From NCBI GenBank assembly GCA_949298405.1, contig CASFWA010000001.1, forward strand, positions 285,127 to 349,126: a DNA stretch of 64,000 nt. The letters run 5' to 3'. Under the pieces are notes generated by a model, which had not been told where the DNA came from, did no database searches, and saw nothing but the letters and a program-made list of their open reading frames with translations. The position numbers and the translations under genes were made by a program. Below, piece by piece: positions 34,655 to 63,503 of the stretch (the stretch's first letter is position 1; the number at the start of each line of letters is the position of its first letter). The DNA is from an uncultured Pseudomonadota bacterium (GTDB taxonomy: Bacteria; Pseudomonadota; Alphaproteobacteria; Rs-D84).

Positions 34655-34772
34655 TGTCACTAAACAGCCCCTATTAATGTTGATCAACAAAAACAGTTCG
34701 AAAGTGGTAATTTTTCACCACTTTTTTATATTCAACTTTCGAACTCGCTGAAAATATTAGGAACCAAACAAA

Positions 34773-34804
34773 AACCCGCACAAGGCGGGTTGAATTCTTG
34801 GTTG
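34773..34804. repeat. 32-bp partial copy of the repeat (terminator hairpin + GAATTCTTGGTTG)
   Basis: AACCCGCACAAGGCGGGTTGAATTCTTGGTTG is identical to the ends of the two 89-bp copies. Confidence 0.8.
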
Positions 34805-34896
34805 GTCGCAGCTGATTCCCTCGGGCATATATAAATATATGTCCTGCGGGGCATTCGTGACGATTTGATTGCGCAGGCTTATCAAATCTACTCATT

Positions 34897-34985
34897 GTCG
34901 AACCAAAGCAACAGTCGTTGCATTGTCGAACCATCACCTCAGACCAATAATTAAACCCGCACAAGGCGGGTTGAATTCTTGGTTG
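34897..34985. repeat. 89-bp direct repeat, copy 2, overlapping the last 6 nt of tRNA-Gln
   Basis: See 32759-32847. Confidence 0.85.
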
Positions 34986-35053
34986 GGGCAGCTGGATTCG
35001 AACCAACACTGACGGAGTCAGAGTCCGGAGTTCTACCGTTAAACTATGCCCCA
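34980..35053 (-). tRNA. tRNA-Gln (anticodon CUG)
   Basis: Reverse complement TGGGGCATAGTTTAACGGTAGAACTCCGGACTCTGACTCCGTCAGTGTTGGTTCGAATCCAGCTGCCCCAACCA; U1-A72 acceptor, loop CUCUGAC, T-loop TTCGAAT, encoded CCA. Confidence 0.9.
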
Positions 35054-35105: not shown

Positions 35106-35133
35106 TTGTCTTTTTATGTGCTTTTCGTATAAT
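35106..35133 (+). promoter_or_regulatory. sigma70-like promoter (TTGTCT-16-TATAAT) driving leader A
   Basis: Consensus -10; downstream TGAATCCAMAGGGAT is shared with leader B. Confidence 0.5.
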
Positions 35134-35139
35134 TTTTAT

Positions 35140-35378
35140 GAATCCACAGGGATGTGGTTTCGGGCCGTAAGAAAGCCAACCCAAAAGCAGCATAAGTTTT
35201 TTTATGCTGAAATGTAGGGATGATACACGGCGCGGATTTGCGCCATTTATTGTCTCTGAACCCCGTATCAGGTCGGGGAGCCGTCAGTTATAAAATAGGG
35301 TATCCCGAAAACTGGCGGGGTCATACTTTTGGGTGATTTTCTTAACTCCCCGACCGCCATTTCCTTGGCGGTTTTTTA
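35140..35378 (+). ncRNA. structured 5' leader A (riboswitch/attenuator-like, unclassified) ending in an intrinsic terminator
   Basis: Paralogous to 62433-62683. Helices GUCGGGGAG/CUCCCCGAC, CCGUCAG/CUGGCGG and terminator CCGCCA/UGGCGG+U6, all with compensatory changes in the paralog. Confidence 0.65.
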
Positions 35379-35476
35379 TAGGATTATTATCAAAAATATT
35401 TTTGTTGACGATAGTCCTAGTTATGATAGGCTTTTTGTACAGAAGGCCCAAAATAAAATTTAATAAAGGAGAAAGT

Positions 35477-58793: not shown

Positions 58794-59894
58794 ATGGAAA
58801 AATACTTAAATAAGATTTTAATCGGTGACTGTATCGAAGTTATGCGTGGAATCCCTGATGCGTCAGTAGATGCGGTTTTTGCAGATAGCCCTTATAACTT
58901 GCAGTTGGGCGCAAAGACTTTGTATCGCCCAGAAGACCAAACTGCGGCACGTGCAGTCCGTGATGCGTGGGATGCTTTTGAAAGCCCAGAAGAATACGAT
59001 GCTTTTACACGTGCATGGTTGACAGAATGTAAACGTGTTTTAAAACCTGATGGCGCAATGTGGGTTATTGGTAGTTATCATAATATATTTAGAGTAGGTG
59101 CTATTTTACAGGATTTAGGTTTCTGGATTTTAAATGATATTGTTTGGGTAAAAACTAATCCTATGCCTAATTTCCGTGGAACAAGATTTACCAATGCTCA
59201 TGAAACACTAATTTGGGCTACGCCAAGAAAAACAGGTAAATATACATTTAATTACGAAACTATGAAAAAACTGAACGGTGGTAAGCAAATGCGTTCAGAT
59301 TGGGATATTAATATTTGTTTGGGCGAAGAACGTGTAAAAGACGAAAATGGAAAAAGTTTACACAATACCCAAAAACCTATGGATTTATTAAGAAGGGTTA
59401 TACTTTCTTCAACAAAAGCAGGTGATGTCATTCTGGACCCGTTCGTTGGAAGTGGTACAACTGCGGCGGCGGCCAAAGAATTAGGTCGTAATTTTATCGG
59501 TATTGATAGAGAAGAAAGTTATGTAAAAGCAGCGCGTGAACGCGTTGAAAGTATTAAACCTATTGACTTGTCTGAAATTGAGGTTGCTGCGCCAAAACGC
59601 GAAGAAGTTCGTGTTGCCTTTAAGGAATTAATAGAAGCAGGTTTATTATATGTAGGTCAGACTTTGGTAAGCCCACGCGGAGAACGTGTTATGATTACGC
59701 GGGATGGAATGTTGGTACATTCTTTGCATGGTAAGGCTTCAATTCATGTAATGGCCGCAAAACTGCAACATTCTGTAAGTTATAACGGTTGGGATTACTG
59801 GTCCGCAGAAAAAAGAGATGGGGCCTTGGTCCCAATAGATGAATTGCGTAAATATATTCGTGGCATAAAGCGCGATATGAAAAAGGCTGCTTAA
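58794..59894 (+). CDS. ccrM: CcrM-type N6-adenine DNA methyltransferase (GANTC class by homology)
   Basis: Collinear with the Caulobacter CcrM sequence as I recall it (WVIGSYHNIFRVG, GFWILNDIVW, NPMPNFRGTRFTNAHETLIWA, DPFVGSGTT, C-terminal domain); motif IV reads DSPY. Confidence 0.9.
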   Translation: MEKYLNKILIGDCIEVMRGIPDASVDAVFADSPYNLQLGAKTLYRPEDQTAARAVRDAWDAFESPEEYDAFTRAWLTECKRVLKPDGAMWVIGSYHNIFRVGAILQDLGFWILNDIVWVKTNPMPNFRGTRFTNAHETLIWATPRKTGKYTFNYETMKKLNGGKQMRSDWDINICLGEERVKDENGKSLHNTQKPMDLLRRVILSSTKAGDVILDPFVGSGTTAAAAKELGRNFIGIDREESYVKAARERVESIKPIDLSEIEVAAPKREEVRVAFKELIEAGLLYVGQTLVSPRGERVMITRDGMLVHSLHGKASIHVMAAKLQHSVSYNGWDYWSAEKRDGALVPIDELRKYIRGIKRDMKKAA

Positions 59895-61062: not shown

Positions 61063-62349
61063 ATGAGCGACGATAAAATTAAATCTACAGAAGAACAACA
61101 AAACGGGAATAATCCCCAGTTTTGTAGTTTTTGTGGAAAAGCAGTTTATGAAGTAAAAAAATTAGTCAGTGGTCGTAATGTTTGTATCTGTGATGAGTGT
61201 ATCAATTTATGTAATGATATCATGGCAGATGATGGGCGTGCAGAACTTGATAAAGATTCTGCTAAATTGCCTACACCACGTCAGATTTATAACTTTTTGA
61301 ATGAATATATCATCGGACAAGATGATGCAAAACGTACGTTGTCTGTTGCGGTTTATAATCATTATAAACGCCATAGTGTTGCGGCTACATCAAAAGTTGA
61401 AATTCAGAAATCTAATGTTTTGTTAATCGGGTCAACAGGTACAGGTAAGACGTTATTTGCTCAGACATTGGCTCGGATACTAGATGTACCTTTTGCAATT
61501 GCTGACGCGACAACTTTGACAGAAGCGGGTTATGTTGGCGATGACGTAGAAAGCGTTTTAACGCGTCTTTTGCAGAATGCTAATTTTGATGTAGAACGCG
61601 CCAGCCGTGGAATTATCTATATCGATGAAATTGATAAGATTTCAAGAAAATCTGAAAATCCGTCACTTACACGCGATGTTTCTGGTGAAGGTGTGCAACA
61701 GGCGTTATTAAAGTTGATAGAAGGTACTGTCGCCAATGTTCCTGCTGGTGGGGCAGGGCGCAAGCACCCAGGGGAAGCAACTGTTCAACTGGATACCAGC
61801 AAGATTTTGTTTATCTGTGGTGGGGCATTTGACGGGTTAAATAAAATAATTGGTTCGCGCACAAATGAACGCGCAGGAATTGGGTTTGGGGCGCATGTTG
61901 AATCTAAAAAAGAACGTGAATCAAAAAATAATTTGGCGGATGTTCAACCAGAAGATTTAGTTAAATTCGGGATTATCCCAGAATTAGTCGGGCGTTTGCC
62001 GATTATAACAACGTTGAAAGATTTGGACGAAGACGCATTGATAAAAATTTTGACAGAACCAAAGAATGCTGTTGTAAAGCAATTTGCGGCTATGTTGGAA
62101 ATGGACGGTGTTAAATTGACTATCACAGATGACGGGTTGCGTGAAATTGCCAAAATGGCTGTTGCACGCAAGACAGGTGCACGTGGGTTGCGTAGTATAT
62201 TAGAAAAATTACTGTTGCAGCCTATGTTTGAGGCTCCTGAAAAGGACGATTTGGCAGAAATTGTGATAGATAAAAATGTTGTGTTGGGGAAGAAGCAACC
62301 CATAGAAATATTAAAAGAAAATAAAAAAGAAAGTAAAAAAGCCGCTTAA
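61063..62349 (+). CDS. clpX: ATP-dependent Clp protease ATP-binding subunit ClpX
   Basis: CSFCGK zinc finger; Walker A GSTGTGKT; [10 protein letters not shown]. Confidence 0.95.
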
Positions 62350-62360
62350 ATATGAAAAAG

Positions 62361-62390
62361 AAAAACACCCGCATTATTGCGGGTGTTTTA
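62361..62390 (+). terminator. intrinsic terminator after clpX
   Basis: CACCCGC-ATTATT-GCGGGTG followed by TTTT. Confidence 0.75.
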
Positions 62391-62397
62391 ATAATTC

Positions 62398-62426
62398 TTG
62401 TTTTTATTTTTTACATAATTTATAAT
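62398..62426 (+). promoter_or_regulatory. sigma70-like promoter (TTGTTT-17-TATAAT) driving leader B
   Basis: Consensus -10; same spacing to the shared GAATCCA start motif as in leader A. Confidence 0.5.
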
Positions 62427-62432
62427 TTCCTT

Positions 62433-62683
62433 GAATCCAAAGGGATTTGGGTTCGGGACTTAGAAAATCCCATAAATACGCGGTGCGTTAATGCGCATTG
62501 TTATCTATATAAAAGAAATCATATACATACATTGTATGTCATTGTTTTCTTTTGTCCCGATGTTTTAAATGTCGGGAAGCCACGATTATATAATAGGGTT
62601 TTCCCGAAAGTCGTGGGGTCATTCGTATTTATGATTTTTCTAACTTCCCGACCACCAGTTTGTTTGGTGGTTTTTGTTTTTTT
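62433..62683 (+). ncRNA. structured 5' leader B (paralog of leader A) ending in an intrinsic terminator
   Basis: GUCGGGAAG/CUUCCCGAC, CCACGA/UCGUGG, terminator ACCACCA/UGGUGGU plus U-run; the SD and ATG of the next gene follow within about 25 nt. Confidence 0.65.
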
Positions 62684-62707
62684 ATACAAATTAAGGAGTT
62701 AGAAAAA

Positions 62708-63226
62708 ATGAAAGGTTATGTAAAATATATTGTGGGCTTTTATATTTCTGTTTTATTACCAACATATGCAAATGGAGGTATTTTTGAGGATTGGTATGAG
62801 AATACGTTACCCAGATATCAAATGCAAATAACAGATATTATAGAATTTTACGGAGATACCGCAGTTTTATTAGATGCTTTGTCTGATGATAGTGGTATAA
62901 GAATAAAAATTAATACTTTGCGATCAGATATGACAGAAAATTATGTTGTTTGCTTTTACGGATGTCATGACAAGAATATGTATGAAGCAAAATCAAATAC
63001 GAATTCTGTTATTTGTTGGGATTGTAAATATCAAGATTGTGAGATGTGGCCTTTTTTGGGGTATTGTAAAACTTGTCCTTCATCTGAGGTTAGTGGCATA
63101 AATGCTGTGCTTTCTGATAATCCTACTTCTTATGATATAAGAGATTGTGTGATACCCAAAAATACGGTTATTAAGGATGAGTCTGGGACGTTTATATTTA
63201 CAGATGATTGCCATTATTCAGAGTAA
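62708..63226 (+). CDS. small secreted cysteine-rich protein
   Basis: RBS AAGGAG; signal-like MKGYVKYIVGFYISVLLPTYANG; CWDCKYQDC...YCKTCPSSE. Confidence 0.65.
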   Translation: MKGYVKYIVGFYISVLLPTYANGGIFEDWYENTLPRYQMQITDIIEFYGDTAVLLDALSDDSGIRIKINTLRSDMTENYVVCFYGCHDKNMYEAKSNTNSVICWDCKYQDCEMWPFLGYCKTCPSSEVSGINAVLSDNPTSYDIRDCVIPKNTVIKDESGTFIFTDDCHYSE

Positions 63227-63276
63227 AAAATATCCCCAAATCGGGGATGTTTTTATTCCTGGTGGCCCTGGTCGGA
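63226..63276. repeat. repeat unit: terminator hairpin plus a 17-nt copy of the tRNA-Leu 3' end (TCCGACCAGGGCCACCA on the minus strand)
   Basis: AAAAATATCCCCAAATCGGGGATGTTTTTATTCCTGGTGGCCCTGGTCGGA; near-duplicate at 63372-63435. Confidence 0.8.
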
Positions 63277-63408
63277 TTGCTCGCGGGCTCGCCAACTCGT
63301 AAGGTTCAAACTTCGCATAGCTTGTTTTCACCAACTATCGTTTCGAACCGACGGTTCTCGTCCGACAGGATAAAAAAACATCCCCAAATGGAGATGTTTT
63401 TATTTCTG

Positions 63409-63432
63409 GTGGCCCTGGTCGTGGCCCTGGTC
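63409..63432. repeat. perfect 12-bp tandem duplication (GTGGCCCTGGTC x2) at the 3' end of tRNA-Leu
   Basis: 63409-63420 equals 63421-63432, read directly. Confidence 0.9.
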
Positions 63433-63503
63433 GGACTCGAACCGACACTCCTTGCAGAACTTGATTTTGAGTCAAGCGCGTCTACCAATTCCGCCACGGG
63501 GCC
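63422..63503 (-). tRNA. tRNA-Leu (anticodon CAA), class II with long variable arm
   Basis: Reverse complement GGCCCCGTGGCGGAATTGGTAGACGCGCTTGACTCAAAATCAAGTTCTGCAAGGAGTGTCGGTTCGAGTCCGACCAGGGCCA; anticodon loop CUCAAAA; T-loop TTCGAGT; CCA is displaced by the 12-bp duplication. Confidence 0.88.

Follow-up and report, generated by a model that had tools for sequence, protein, structure and literature searches.

A multi-copy family of structured RNAs in front of surface and secreted protein genes of gut Alphaproteobacteria: probable transcription-attenuating 5' leaders carrying an sRNA-Xcc1-like module

The RNA called sRNA-Xcc1 was described as a discrete small RNA (sRNA) of 88 nt (PMC2996969), and in the published cases it precedes symE in integron cassettes and an ORF6N gene in the APSE phage. 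The Brt RNAs of Bartonella are nine RNAs of about 200 nt, each found directly upstream of a poorly transcribed gene; they are backed by RNA-seq and Northern experiments, and it has been proposed that they act both as a riboswitch in cis and as an sRNA in trans, with a link to the autotransporter adhesin BadA (PMC5387305). We analysed a stretch of 64,000 nucleotides, hereafter the window, from an uncultured alphaproteobacterium of the lineage Rs-D84 (assembly GCA_949298405.1, contig CASFWA010000001.1, positions 285,127 to 349,126 of the forward strand), in which a structured RNA of about 250 nt, here called leader B, separates clpX from the gene of a cysteine-rich secreted protein. Leader B is a member of an uncatalogued family which fronts more than 100 genes, mostly for surface or secreted proteins, in gut bacteria with tiny genomes. 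We consider it likely that leader B is a cis-acting 5' leader which attenuates transcription and is built like a riboswitch, a swap of strands deciding whether transcription terminates. Attenuating leaders are a kind of RNA which is already known; what is new here is that such a leader incorporates an Xcc1-like module.

When the last 90 nt or so of leader B are aligned with the Rfam model of sRNA-Xcc1 (RF02221), they score 40.8 bits over model positions 1-87 (E = 7e-6), while a second copy of the RNA in the window, copy A, scores 42.5 bits with the whole model aligned. The gathering score of the model, 53 bits, is reached neither in the window nor at any of the 18 family loci tested, and four genuine copies of sRNA-Xcc1 taken from plasmid records score 68.8-72.6 bits. 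Both copies in the window have the three-way-junction architecture of sRNA-Xcc1: a closing stem, an arm with an AUAnAAUA...GAA internal loop which is capped by a small hairpin, a second hairpin, a U-rich junction strand and a CC-rich tail. They also share its site directly upstream of a same-strand open reading frame (ORF), an observed habit which lies outside the Rfam definition. Three of the genuine copies (L209 1485-1569, L210 1482-1572 and L211 1498-1580; 69.7-72.6 bits) are placed 15-39 nt upstream of same-strand ORFs for a BRO family protein, an ORF6N-like protein and a hypothetical protein, of which the BRO and the hypothetical one are annotated and the third is unannotated; in these three the 3' strand of the closing stem runs into an overlapping hairpin. 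In the fourth copy, from Neisseria, the first ORF comes 249 nt downstream.

The family differs from sRNA-Xcc1 in four respects. The module is here the 3' third of an RNA of about 250 nt, with the promoter about 140 nt upstream of it; a 5' domain, missing from sRNA-Xcc1, pairs with the hairpin loop and the junction strand of the module; the RNA ends in a canonical U-tract terminator; and the hosts are gut Alphaproteobacteria with reduced genomes, where the copies are chromosomal and not carried by integrons, phages or plasmids. Since the sole conserved promoter lies that far before the domain and the consensus scan detects none on the plus strand inside leader B, the promoter positions argue against a discrete transcript of about 88 nt starting at the base of the closing stem in this family. 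The 3' domain of the family would work like the sRNA-Xcc1 fold and probably descends from it. Rfam at its curated thresholds detects only two tRNAs in the window, with no family matching the leaders, and at permissive thresholds the matches beyond sRNA-Xcc1 were terminator-driven noise (models of PyrR, STnc430 and amino-acid leaders, on the minus strand of the clpX terminator).

By analogy of function the family seems closest to riboswitches which terminate transcription and to leaders present in many copies, such as T-boxes. The family shares with riboswitches and attenuators the order of promoter, large structured domain, intrinsic terminator, Shine-Dalgarno (SD) sequence and ORF, as well as, so far as the alignment suggests, mutually exclusive helices which share nucleotides with the terminator, and it shares with T-boxes the presence of many copies per genome before different genes. 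It differs from riboswitches and attenuators in that its genes encode mostly secreted or surface proteins and belong to no single metabolic pathway, and in the small overlap of only 3 bp between the closing stem and the terminator. The Rfam search returned no T-box match even at E <= 10, and no aminoacyl-tRNA synthetase or amino-acid gene was found among the 97 downstream proteins scanned with Pfam. The ideas of a T-box and of a ribozyme were rejected for want of Rfam matches, and that of a leader peptide was rejected as well: there is no conserved small ORF, and the central region is hypervariable.

Within the Alphaproteobacteria the Brt family appears to be the closest analogue. Compared by description only, Brt RNAs and the present leaders are both multi-copy structured alphaproteobacterial RNAs with a terminator-like 3' element and a link to autotransporter adhesins. 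Brt RNAs always precede genes of XRE-type helix-turn-helix (HTH) proteins, whereas HTH_3 or HTH_31 regulators make up only 2 of the 97 scanned proteins here, and the leader family is known from sequence alone. The put sites of phage HK022 and the EAR element of Bacillus are also structured RNAs in the nascent transcript, upstream of terminators that must be passed; they modify RNA polymerase processively and share no nucleotides with the terminator. The Rfam searches of the window gave no similarity to put or EAR.

The family was delimited by scanning a genome collection with a 24-nt pattern taken from the 5' hairpin, AATCCNNAGGGATNNGGNTTCGGG. At least 119 loci matched this pattern, where about 4 matches would be expected by chance and 3 obvious chance matches were seen. 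A profile search of the fetched loci (nhmmer) gave 116 full-length matches, of which 109, with lengths of 198-271 nt, are distinct. All counts out of 109 given below refer to these distinct full-length relatives, drawn from the loci behind the 5'-pattern matches, and the size of the family is a lower bound. The relatives are spread over 65 assemblies, with up to five copies per assembly among the matches listed. The hosts are nearly all gut-derived alphaproteobacterial metagenome-assembled genomes (MAGs) labelled Candidatus Enterousia, 'Rickettsiales bacterium' or 'Alphaproteobacteria bacterium', and they come from human, mouse, chicken, sheep, goat, yak, deer, buffalo, rabbit and termite. Enterousia lies within the uncultured order Rs-D84, and the genomes of this order are mostly smaller than 1 Mb (PMC12306168). 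Leaders can occur in tandem: the locus L126 has two leader starts (2301-2524 and 2605 onward), each with its own promoter and 304 nt apart, the second leader being cut by the end of the contig.

Patterns taken from the 3' domain (AATAGGGTNNNCCNNAAANNNNNGGGGTCAT and a gapped version) retrieved, apart from one chance match in Thalassobium, nothing but copy A orthologues from two MAGs; they were too strict, and the family was revealed by the 5' hairpin pattern. Viral contigs contained no match to the gapped 3'-domain pattern or to a stricter 24-nt 5'-hairpin pattern, which disfavours a phage-borne element, and blastn of leader B against plasmid and phage collections gave only short AT-rich chance matches, none of them significant. 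The papers searched mention no RNA of this kind in Enterousia. The sequence of the 5' hairpin is absent from the first 200 of the 408 supplementary files of a survey of structured RNAs in the human microbiome (PMC8040213), and an absence from this part of the supplements is not proof of novelty.

We looked at the arrangement of promoter, terminator and ORF over the whole family. Every copy has a sigma-70-like promoter in the 45 nt upstream, placed in such a way that the RNA starts at the 5' hairpin. In the promoter logo, T stands at -35 in 94% of the copies, a TAtAAT-like hexamer at positions -13 to -8, and G at +1 in 99%. This means that the 5' hairpin is the very start of the transcript. At the other end, at least 5 U are present in the 9 nt after the terminator stem in 104/109 relatives. 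A same-strand ORF with an SD sequence follows downstream, again in 104 of the 109, and in 80 of those 104 its start lies 8-40 nt past the RNA. The five remaining relatives are two at contig ends, one with a truncated ORF, one facing a convergent gene and one divergent copy. At L099 a second hairpin and a convergent gene for a Cys-rich secreted protein come after the leader (2625-2827); at L127 (5746-5981, minus strand) the SD and the ATG are intact and the ORF ends after 7 codons. The geometry of terminator, SD and ORF is so tight that most members have no room for a separate promoter.

Leader B itself follows this plan. Its promoter puts the transcription start at or adjacent to G62433, and the RNA spans 62433-62683. 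This promoter scores under the -35 threshold of our consensus scan, in which its equivalent in copy A scores 10/12. The terminator stem has 9 pairs, 4 of which are G-C, and is followed by UUUGUUUUUUU up to 62683; the end of the U run is separated from the SD by 9 nt and from the ATG (62708) by 24 nt. The clpX terminator insulates leader B from clpX transcription. The consensus scan detects no promoter-like site on the plus strand in 62440-62707. By eye one can notice a weak candidate, TTGTTT at 62660-62665 followed by a 17-nt spacer and TATACA at 62683-62688; the last T is missing from its -10 hexamer, and its start would fall inside the SD.

A preliminary description of this DNA, made from the letters alone, had reported the terminator, U run, SD and ATG of leader B, and all are present where it had placed them. 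According to this description, no promoter belongs to the downstream gene itself and its transcription relies on read-through; the claim is strongly supported by the tight ORF spacing in the family, by the leaders' own promoters and by the U tracts found in 104/109 relatives. Hence the reading of the RNA as a cis leader is supported, and the argument for cis-regulation is further strengthened by compensatory changes in the helices which compete for the foot of the terminator (see below).

The intergenic RNA has a minimum free energy (MFE) of -93.5 kcal/mol, against -56.8 ± 4.5 kcal/mol for shuffled sequences (z = -8.1). We counted helix pairs in a sequence-only MAFFT alignment (A2), the nested helices being read by eye: the 5'-end hairpin P1, two central hairpins, the closing stem, the arm, the second hairpin and the terminator. 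In these helices 92.8% of the cells are paired, compared with 31-45% when the partners are slid by 1-3 columns. Compensatory changes occur at 33 of the 47 pairs, and none of 500 shuffles reaches the observed values. In the Xcc1-like part the closing stem, the arm and the hairpin are 87-99% paired, with compensatory changes, over the 109 sequences, and helices 2 and 3, the central hairpins, show compensatory changes at all pairs. G-U pairs are frequent (4/19, UG in 81 sequences; 54/76, GU in 59; 297/331, GU in 68), and for this reason the structure is specific to the RNA of the plus strand. The features of leader B and of its surroundings are listed in Table 1.

Table 1. Coordinates of leader B, its neighbours and copy A in the window
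Feature	Position	Strand	Remarks
clpX stop codon	62347-62349		End of clpX at 62349
clpX intrinsic terminator	62362-62389	+	12-bp bidirectional hairpin, upstream of leader B
Leader B promoter	62398-62426	+	-35-like TTGTTT 62398-62403, 17-nt spacer, -10 TATAAT 62421-62426
P1, 5'-end hairpin	62433-62454	+	GAAUCCAAA-GGGA-UUUGGGUUC; near-invariant except for one covarying pair
P2, local hairpin	62455-62471	+	GGGA...UCCC; loop UAGAAAA 62461-62467 supplies the 5' strand of long-range helix LR1
5' strand of long-range helix LR2	62472-62480	+	AUAAAUACG; pairs with 62622-62631
Variable central hairpins	62481-62541	+	P3 (62481-62500) and P4 (about 62509-62552 in leader B)
Anti-closing arm	62555-62562	+	UCCCGAUG; pairs with 62570-62577
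sRNA-Xcc1-like three-way junction	62571-62652	+	
Closing stem	62571-62579 with 62644-62652	+	GUCGGGAAG / CUUCCCGAC
Arm of the three-way junction	62580-62616	+	Conserved UAUAUAAUAG...GAAAG internal loop
Second hairpin	62618-62635	+	GUCA...UGAU
Junction strand	62636-62642	+	UUUUCUA, the 3' strand of LR1
Leader B terminator	62650-62683	+	9-bp stem GACCACCAG-UUUGU-UUGGUGGUU (62650-62672) and U run
Shine-Dalgarno sequence	62693-62698	+	AAGGAG, of the downstream gene
Downstream gene	62708-63226	+	172 aa, signal-peptide-like N-terminus MKGYVKYIVGFYISVLLPTYA, 9 Cys
Copy A, promoter and RNA	35106-35384	+	Paralogue of leader B; RNA 35140-35384, terminator 35352-35373

The one pair of P1 which varies is 8/15, and it covaries (AU in 38 sequences, UA in 38, CG in 31). 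The loop of P1, A-GGGA-U, is invariant in all members (columns 9-14; GGGA at 62442-62445 in leader B and 35149-35152 in copy A). In some copies its context reads ACAGGGAUGU, and it resembles the GGA-in-loop sites of CsrA/RsmA-type proteins. The stem of P2 was assessed by folding each sequence separately, MAFFT setting subgroups in different registers; it varies as GGGC/GCCC, GGGA/UCCC, GGGU/ACCC, GGAC/GUCC and others.

Two long-range helices were found by RNAalifold, LR1 in columns 31-35/282-286 and LR2 in columns 45-51/265-273. They join the loop of P2 and the linker which follows it to the junction strand and to the hairpin loop of the Xcc1-like module, with 31-65 double changes per pair. 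The same pairing was checked independently of any alignment on 108 members, which contain more than 90 distinct variants: duplexes between cognate 5' and 3' strands have an energy of -19.8 ± 2.6 kcal/mol, against -10.7 ± 3.2 kcal/mol for non-cognate ones. The strands of LR1 and LR2 (62461-62480 with 62622-62642) are hypervariable, and copy-specific even between paralogues of the same genome, in contrast with P1, the closing stem and the terminator, which are near-invariant in sequence. This variability may reflect neutral drift with compensation, or else selection against pairing between paralogous leaders.

The alignment supports two sets of helices around the terminator. Set I is the solution of RNAalifold and of the MFE fold. 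In this set the arm at columns 149-157 (UCCCGAUG) pairs with GUCGGG(G), the 5' GGG (columns 23-25) pairs with a distal CCC (294-296), and the terminator has its full 9 bp (297-305/323-331). Its positions are 88.1% paired, and those of the anti-closing hairpin alone 85.7%; this local hairpin sequesters the 5' strand of the closing stem. Its pair 156/178, which lies outside the shared strand, shows 33 double changes. Set II is of the Xcc1 type: GUCGGGGAG pairs with CUCCCCGAC (columns 179-189/289-299, 99% paired), with double changes at the distal closing pairs 187/291, 188/290 and 189/289, while the 5' GGG pairs locally and forms P2, whose stem covaries. The closing stem of Set II takes the GAC of columns 297-299 (62650-62652), the first three bases of the terminator and hence also its foot. 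Columns 179-187 and 297-299 are thus common to both sets, and the overlap with the terminator amounts to only 3 bp.

Some sequences vary within the shared strand. When column 187 is A, both of its partners are U (6 sequences), and when it is C both are G (2 sequences). Column 180 is C in ten sequences from different subgroups; the closing partner is G in 6/10 of them, the anti-closing partner is G in 6/10, and both are G in 5. Covariation is observed for both helix sets, as directly as the geometry of promoter, terminator and ORF and the conservation of the family. From these alignment patterns, the two sets appear to be mutually exclusive, each of them kept by compensatory change, and a partly static junction may fit too. 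When the closing stem is enforced on leader B with ViennaRNA, the terminator shrinks from 9 to 6 bp and the energy is -81.2 instead of -92.5 kcal/mol, a value which gives no credit to LR1 and LR2, as both become pseudoknots in that fold.

The mechanism which we propose is the following. Transcription would start at G62433 from the leader's own promoter and would give a compact RNA of about 250 nt, in which LR1 and LR2 would tie the 5' domain to the sRNA-Xcc1-like three-way junction. RNA polymerase would then meet the intrinsic terminator 24 nt before the ATG. As the Cys-rich secreted-protein gene lacks a promoter of its own, it would be made solely from transcripts which pass this terminator. 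In Fold I, the CCCGA arm (62555-62562) would pair with GUCGGG and the distal CCC with the 5' GGG; the GAC at 62650-62652 would be left free, the 9-bp terminator would be complete, and transcription would stop. In Fold II, GUCGGGAAG and CUUCCCGAC would close the three-way junction and take the GAC, so that the terminator would have 6 bp, shifted by 3 nt from the U run, and the polymerase would read through. Which of the two folds prevails would depend on an effector, be it a metabolite, a protein or temperature. We infer from the helix sets that they alternate in time, that Fold II corresponds to 'on' and that there is an effector; read-through would then be regulated, as opposed to leaky.

Several points weigh against this proposal. 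The evidence is one of sequence, and both a truncated species of about 250 nt and conditional read-through are predictions. Most expression platforms of characterised riboswitches have a larger overlap than the 3 bp shared here by closing stem and terminator. Some of the pairs described as 'alternative' could be present together in a static junction of several helices; topology allows the inner closing pairs 187-189/289-291 to form along with the anti-closing hairpin and both long-range helices. Of the 109 copies, 3 are orphans or stand before a decayed ORF. The downstream genes are heterogeneous, with methyltransferases, GT2 enzymes, HTH proteins and ThyA beside secreted proteins, an uncommon mixture behind a metabolite riboswitch and one which points to no ligand. 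Finally, one subgroup, in front of PMP autotransporters, has a longer spacer after the terminator (see below), where extra control or a second promoter is possible.

An alternative would be that the transcript of about 250 nt acts in trans, by base pairing or by sequestering a protein, as a stand-alone or dual-function sRNA, and that the gene is expressed through constitutive leaky read-through. A similar proposal exists for the Brt RNAs; for the present family we regard it as unlikely. The same-strand ORF with an SD which follows 104/109 copies, mostly at 40 nt or less and with no room for a promoter, means that the RNA is at least also a leader, even if L099, L106 and L127 have no usable downstream ORF and would fit an RNA acting by itself. 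A strong-looking promoter of its own and a canonical terminator are what one expects of an sRNA, but covariation in mutually exclusive helices near the terminator is unexpected for a plain one. There are precedents for such an RNA in the resemblance of the 3' domain to sRNA-Xcc1, a discrete RNA of about 88 nt detected by Northern blot in Xanthomonas (PMC2996969), and in the Brt RNAs, abundant species of about 200 nt directly upstream of poorly transcribed genes (PMC5387305). In the present family, however, the most variable segments, LR1 and LR2, pair intramolecularly, leaving no obvious conserved single-stranded seed.

A little less probable again is a static structured 5' untranslated region (UTR), in which a single fold would stabilise the mRNA through its 5'-terminal hairpin or would bind a protein, one candidate being a CsrA-like regulator which contacts the GGGA loop and the SD; the hairpin and U run would then set a fixed level of attenuation or would be mainly a structural element. 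The position of P1 exactly at the transcript start and the near invariance of its stem and of its A-GGGA-U loop do suggest that a protein recognises this hairpin or that the hairpin protects the 5' end, and the heterogeneity of the downstream genes fits this alternative too. A single nested fold can accommodate much of the pairing, but GUC 62571-62573 and GAC 62650-62652 are each claimed by two helices conserved through compensatory changes, and the local stem of P2 is incompatible with the helix 23-25/294-296. The near-universal U tract right after the stem is, besides, the signature of a working terminator.

Lastly, it is highly improbable that the 116-aa ORF at 62352-62702 codes for a protein or that the element is the non-functional scar of a repeat or mobile element, for although the ORF is open and was called by a gene caller in one assembly (L006), and although the family is multi-copy with both copies of the window near tRNA genes whose 3' ends are duplicated, the ORF has no Pfam match (the preliminary description had already held it to be probably non-coding) and crosses the clpX terminator, an open plus-strand frame over at least 90% of the RNA exists in only 18/109 relatives, conservation tracks base pairing down to strand-specific G-U pairs, the orientation is fixed relative to the promoter and the downstream ORF, terminal repeats and a transposase are absent, and neither the patterns in viral contigs nor blastn in the phage and plasmid collections gave a match of significance.

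We return to the attenuating leader and to the genes which it fronts. A strongly hydrophobic, signal-like N-terminus is present in 73 of the 104 downstream proteins, and in 87 of the 104 at a looser cut (about 70-84%), and 41/104 contain at least 4% Cys. Among the 97 downstream proteins scanned with Pfam we found 13 Autotransporter, 11 Chlam_PMP and 2 YadA_anchor matches, and also EcoRI-type and C5 DNA methylases, GT2 glycosyltransferases, a thymidylate synthase (ThyA) and Band_7; most of the 97 have no Pfam match. The genes are thus mostly, not solely, exported, and they look like an accessory set for host interaction. It had been suggested that the leaders define a regulon for surface composition, with a genome-wide search for further copies upstream of other envelope genes as a check. 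The 5'-pattern scan found at least 119 loci, and the signal-like N-termini together with the 13/97 autotransporters speak for the regulon; the methyltransferases, glycosyltransferases, HTH regulators and thymidylate synthase show that other genes are included too, and the regulon is supported only in part. The 172-aa Cys-rich protein behind leader B belongs to no Pfam family; a homologue with 31.7% identity likewise stands behind a family leader in another MAG (L095).

We put forward tentatively, as a possibility which goes further than the attenuation proposed for leader B, that the family is a new riboswitch-like class of attenuators, an RNA of about 240 nt with a double long-range pairing around an Xcc1-type junction, and that it is the main regulatory device for variable surface, secreted and accessory genes in the transcription-factor-poor gut Alphaproteobacteria of Rs-D84, with their genomes below 1 Mb. 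If this is true, uncultured bacteria common in the animal and human gut, with less than 1 Mb of DNA, would use one reusable RNA leader, in place of protein regulators, to govern many of their surface and secreted proteins, among them autotransporter adhesins of the PMP and YadA types. The copy-specific LR1 and LR2 would be 'address' helices which prevent mispairing among the paralogous leaders of one cell. The 'sRNA-Xcc1' of integrons, phages and plasmids would be a module of cis leaders, instead of or besides an sRNA acting in trans, and would merit re-examination in integron cassettes, phages and plasmids as the 5' leader of the gene which follows. The alignment of 109 sequences, with its abundant covariation, would be a large and well-supported candidate for a new class of regulatory RNA with a testable two-state model, and the family a good target for the search of a ligand or effector.

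Copy A illustrates the second type of spacing. The profile search of the window found exactly two leader copies, and copy A is 74-81% identical to leader B in two blocks; its fold has z = -7.5. Its promoter (35106-35133) consists of TTGTCT, a 16-nt spacer and TATAAT. It lies 92 nt upstream of the ATG (35477) of a PMP autotransporter of 1276 aa, with Chlam_PMP repeats and an autotransporter beta-domain according to Pfam. The PMP-autotransporter subgroup to which copy A belongs has a conserved spacer of 90-125 nt between terminator and ATG. The consensus scan of the spacer of copy A (35385-35476) gave no promoter on the plus strand. Spacers of this type (35385-35476; L001, L002, L016, L048, L054, L070 and others) hold palindromes such as GACGATAGTC, and they also carry a hairpin, GGCUUUUUGUACAGAAGGCC; these features suggest a second control element.

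Around the leader-gene units we made some further observations. In a scan of the genome collection with ClpX, no relative above 61% identity was present among the matches listed. Just 5' of clpP-clpX, at 58794-59894, lies the gene of a 366-aa N6/N4 DNA methyltransferase with a C-terminal RAMA domain, which is CcrM-like according to the Pfam marks on L003 and fits with the window being of alphaproteobacterial origin. Two tRNA genes on the minus strand, tRNA-Leu (63421-63503) and tRNA-Gln (34980-35053), are each accompanied by a nearby direct repeat which comprises a terminator hairpin and the 3' end of the tRNA. For tRNA-Leu the two repeats (63219-63274 and 63366-63421) are 80% identical with a spacing of 147 nt, and for tRNA-Gln (34772-34805 and 34953-34986) they are 100% identical with a spacing of 181 nt. 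In both cases the repeats lie within about 150-450 nt of a leader-gene unit, and they could be decayed tandem copies of the tRNAs or att-like scars of integration.

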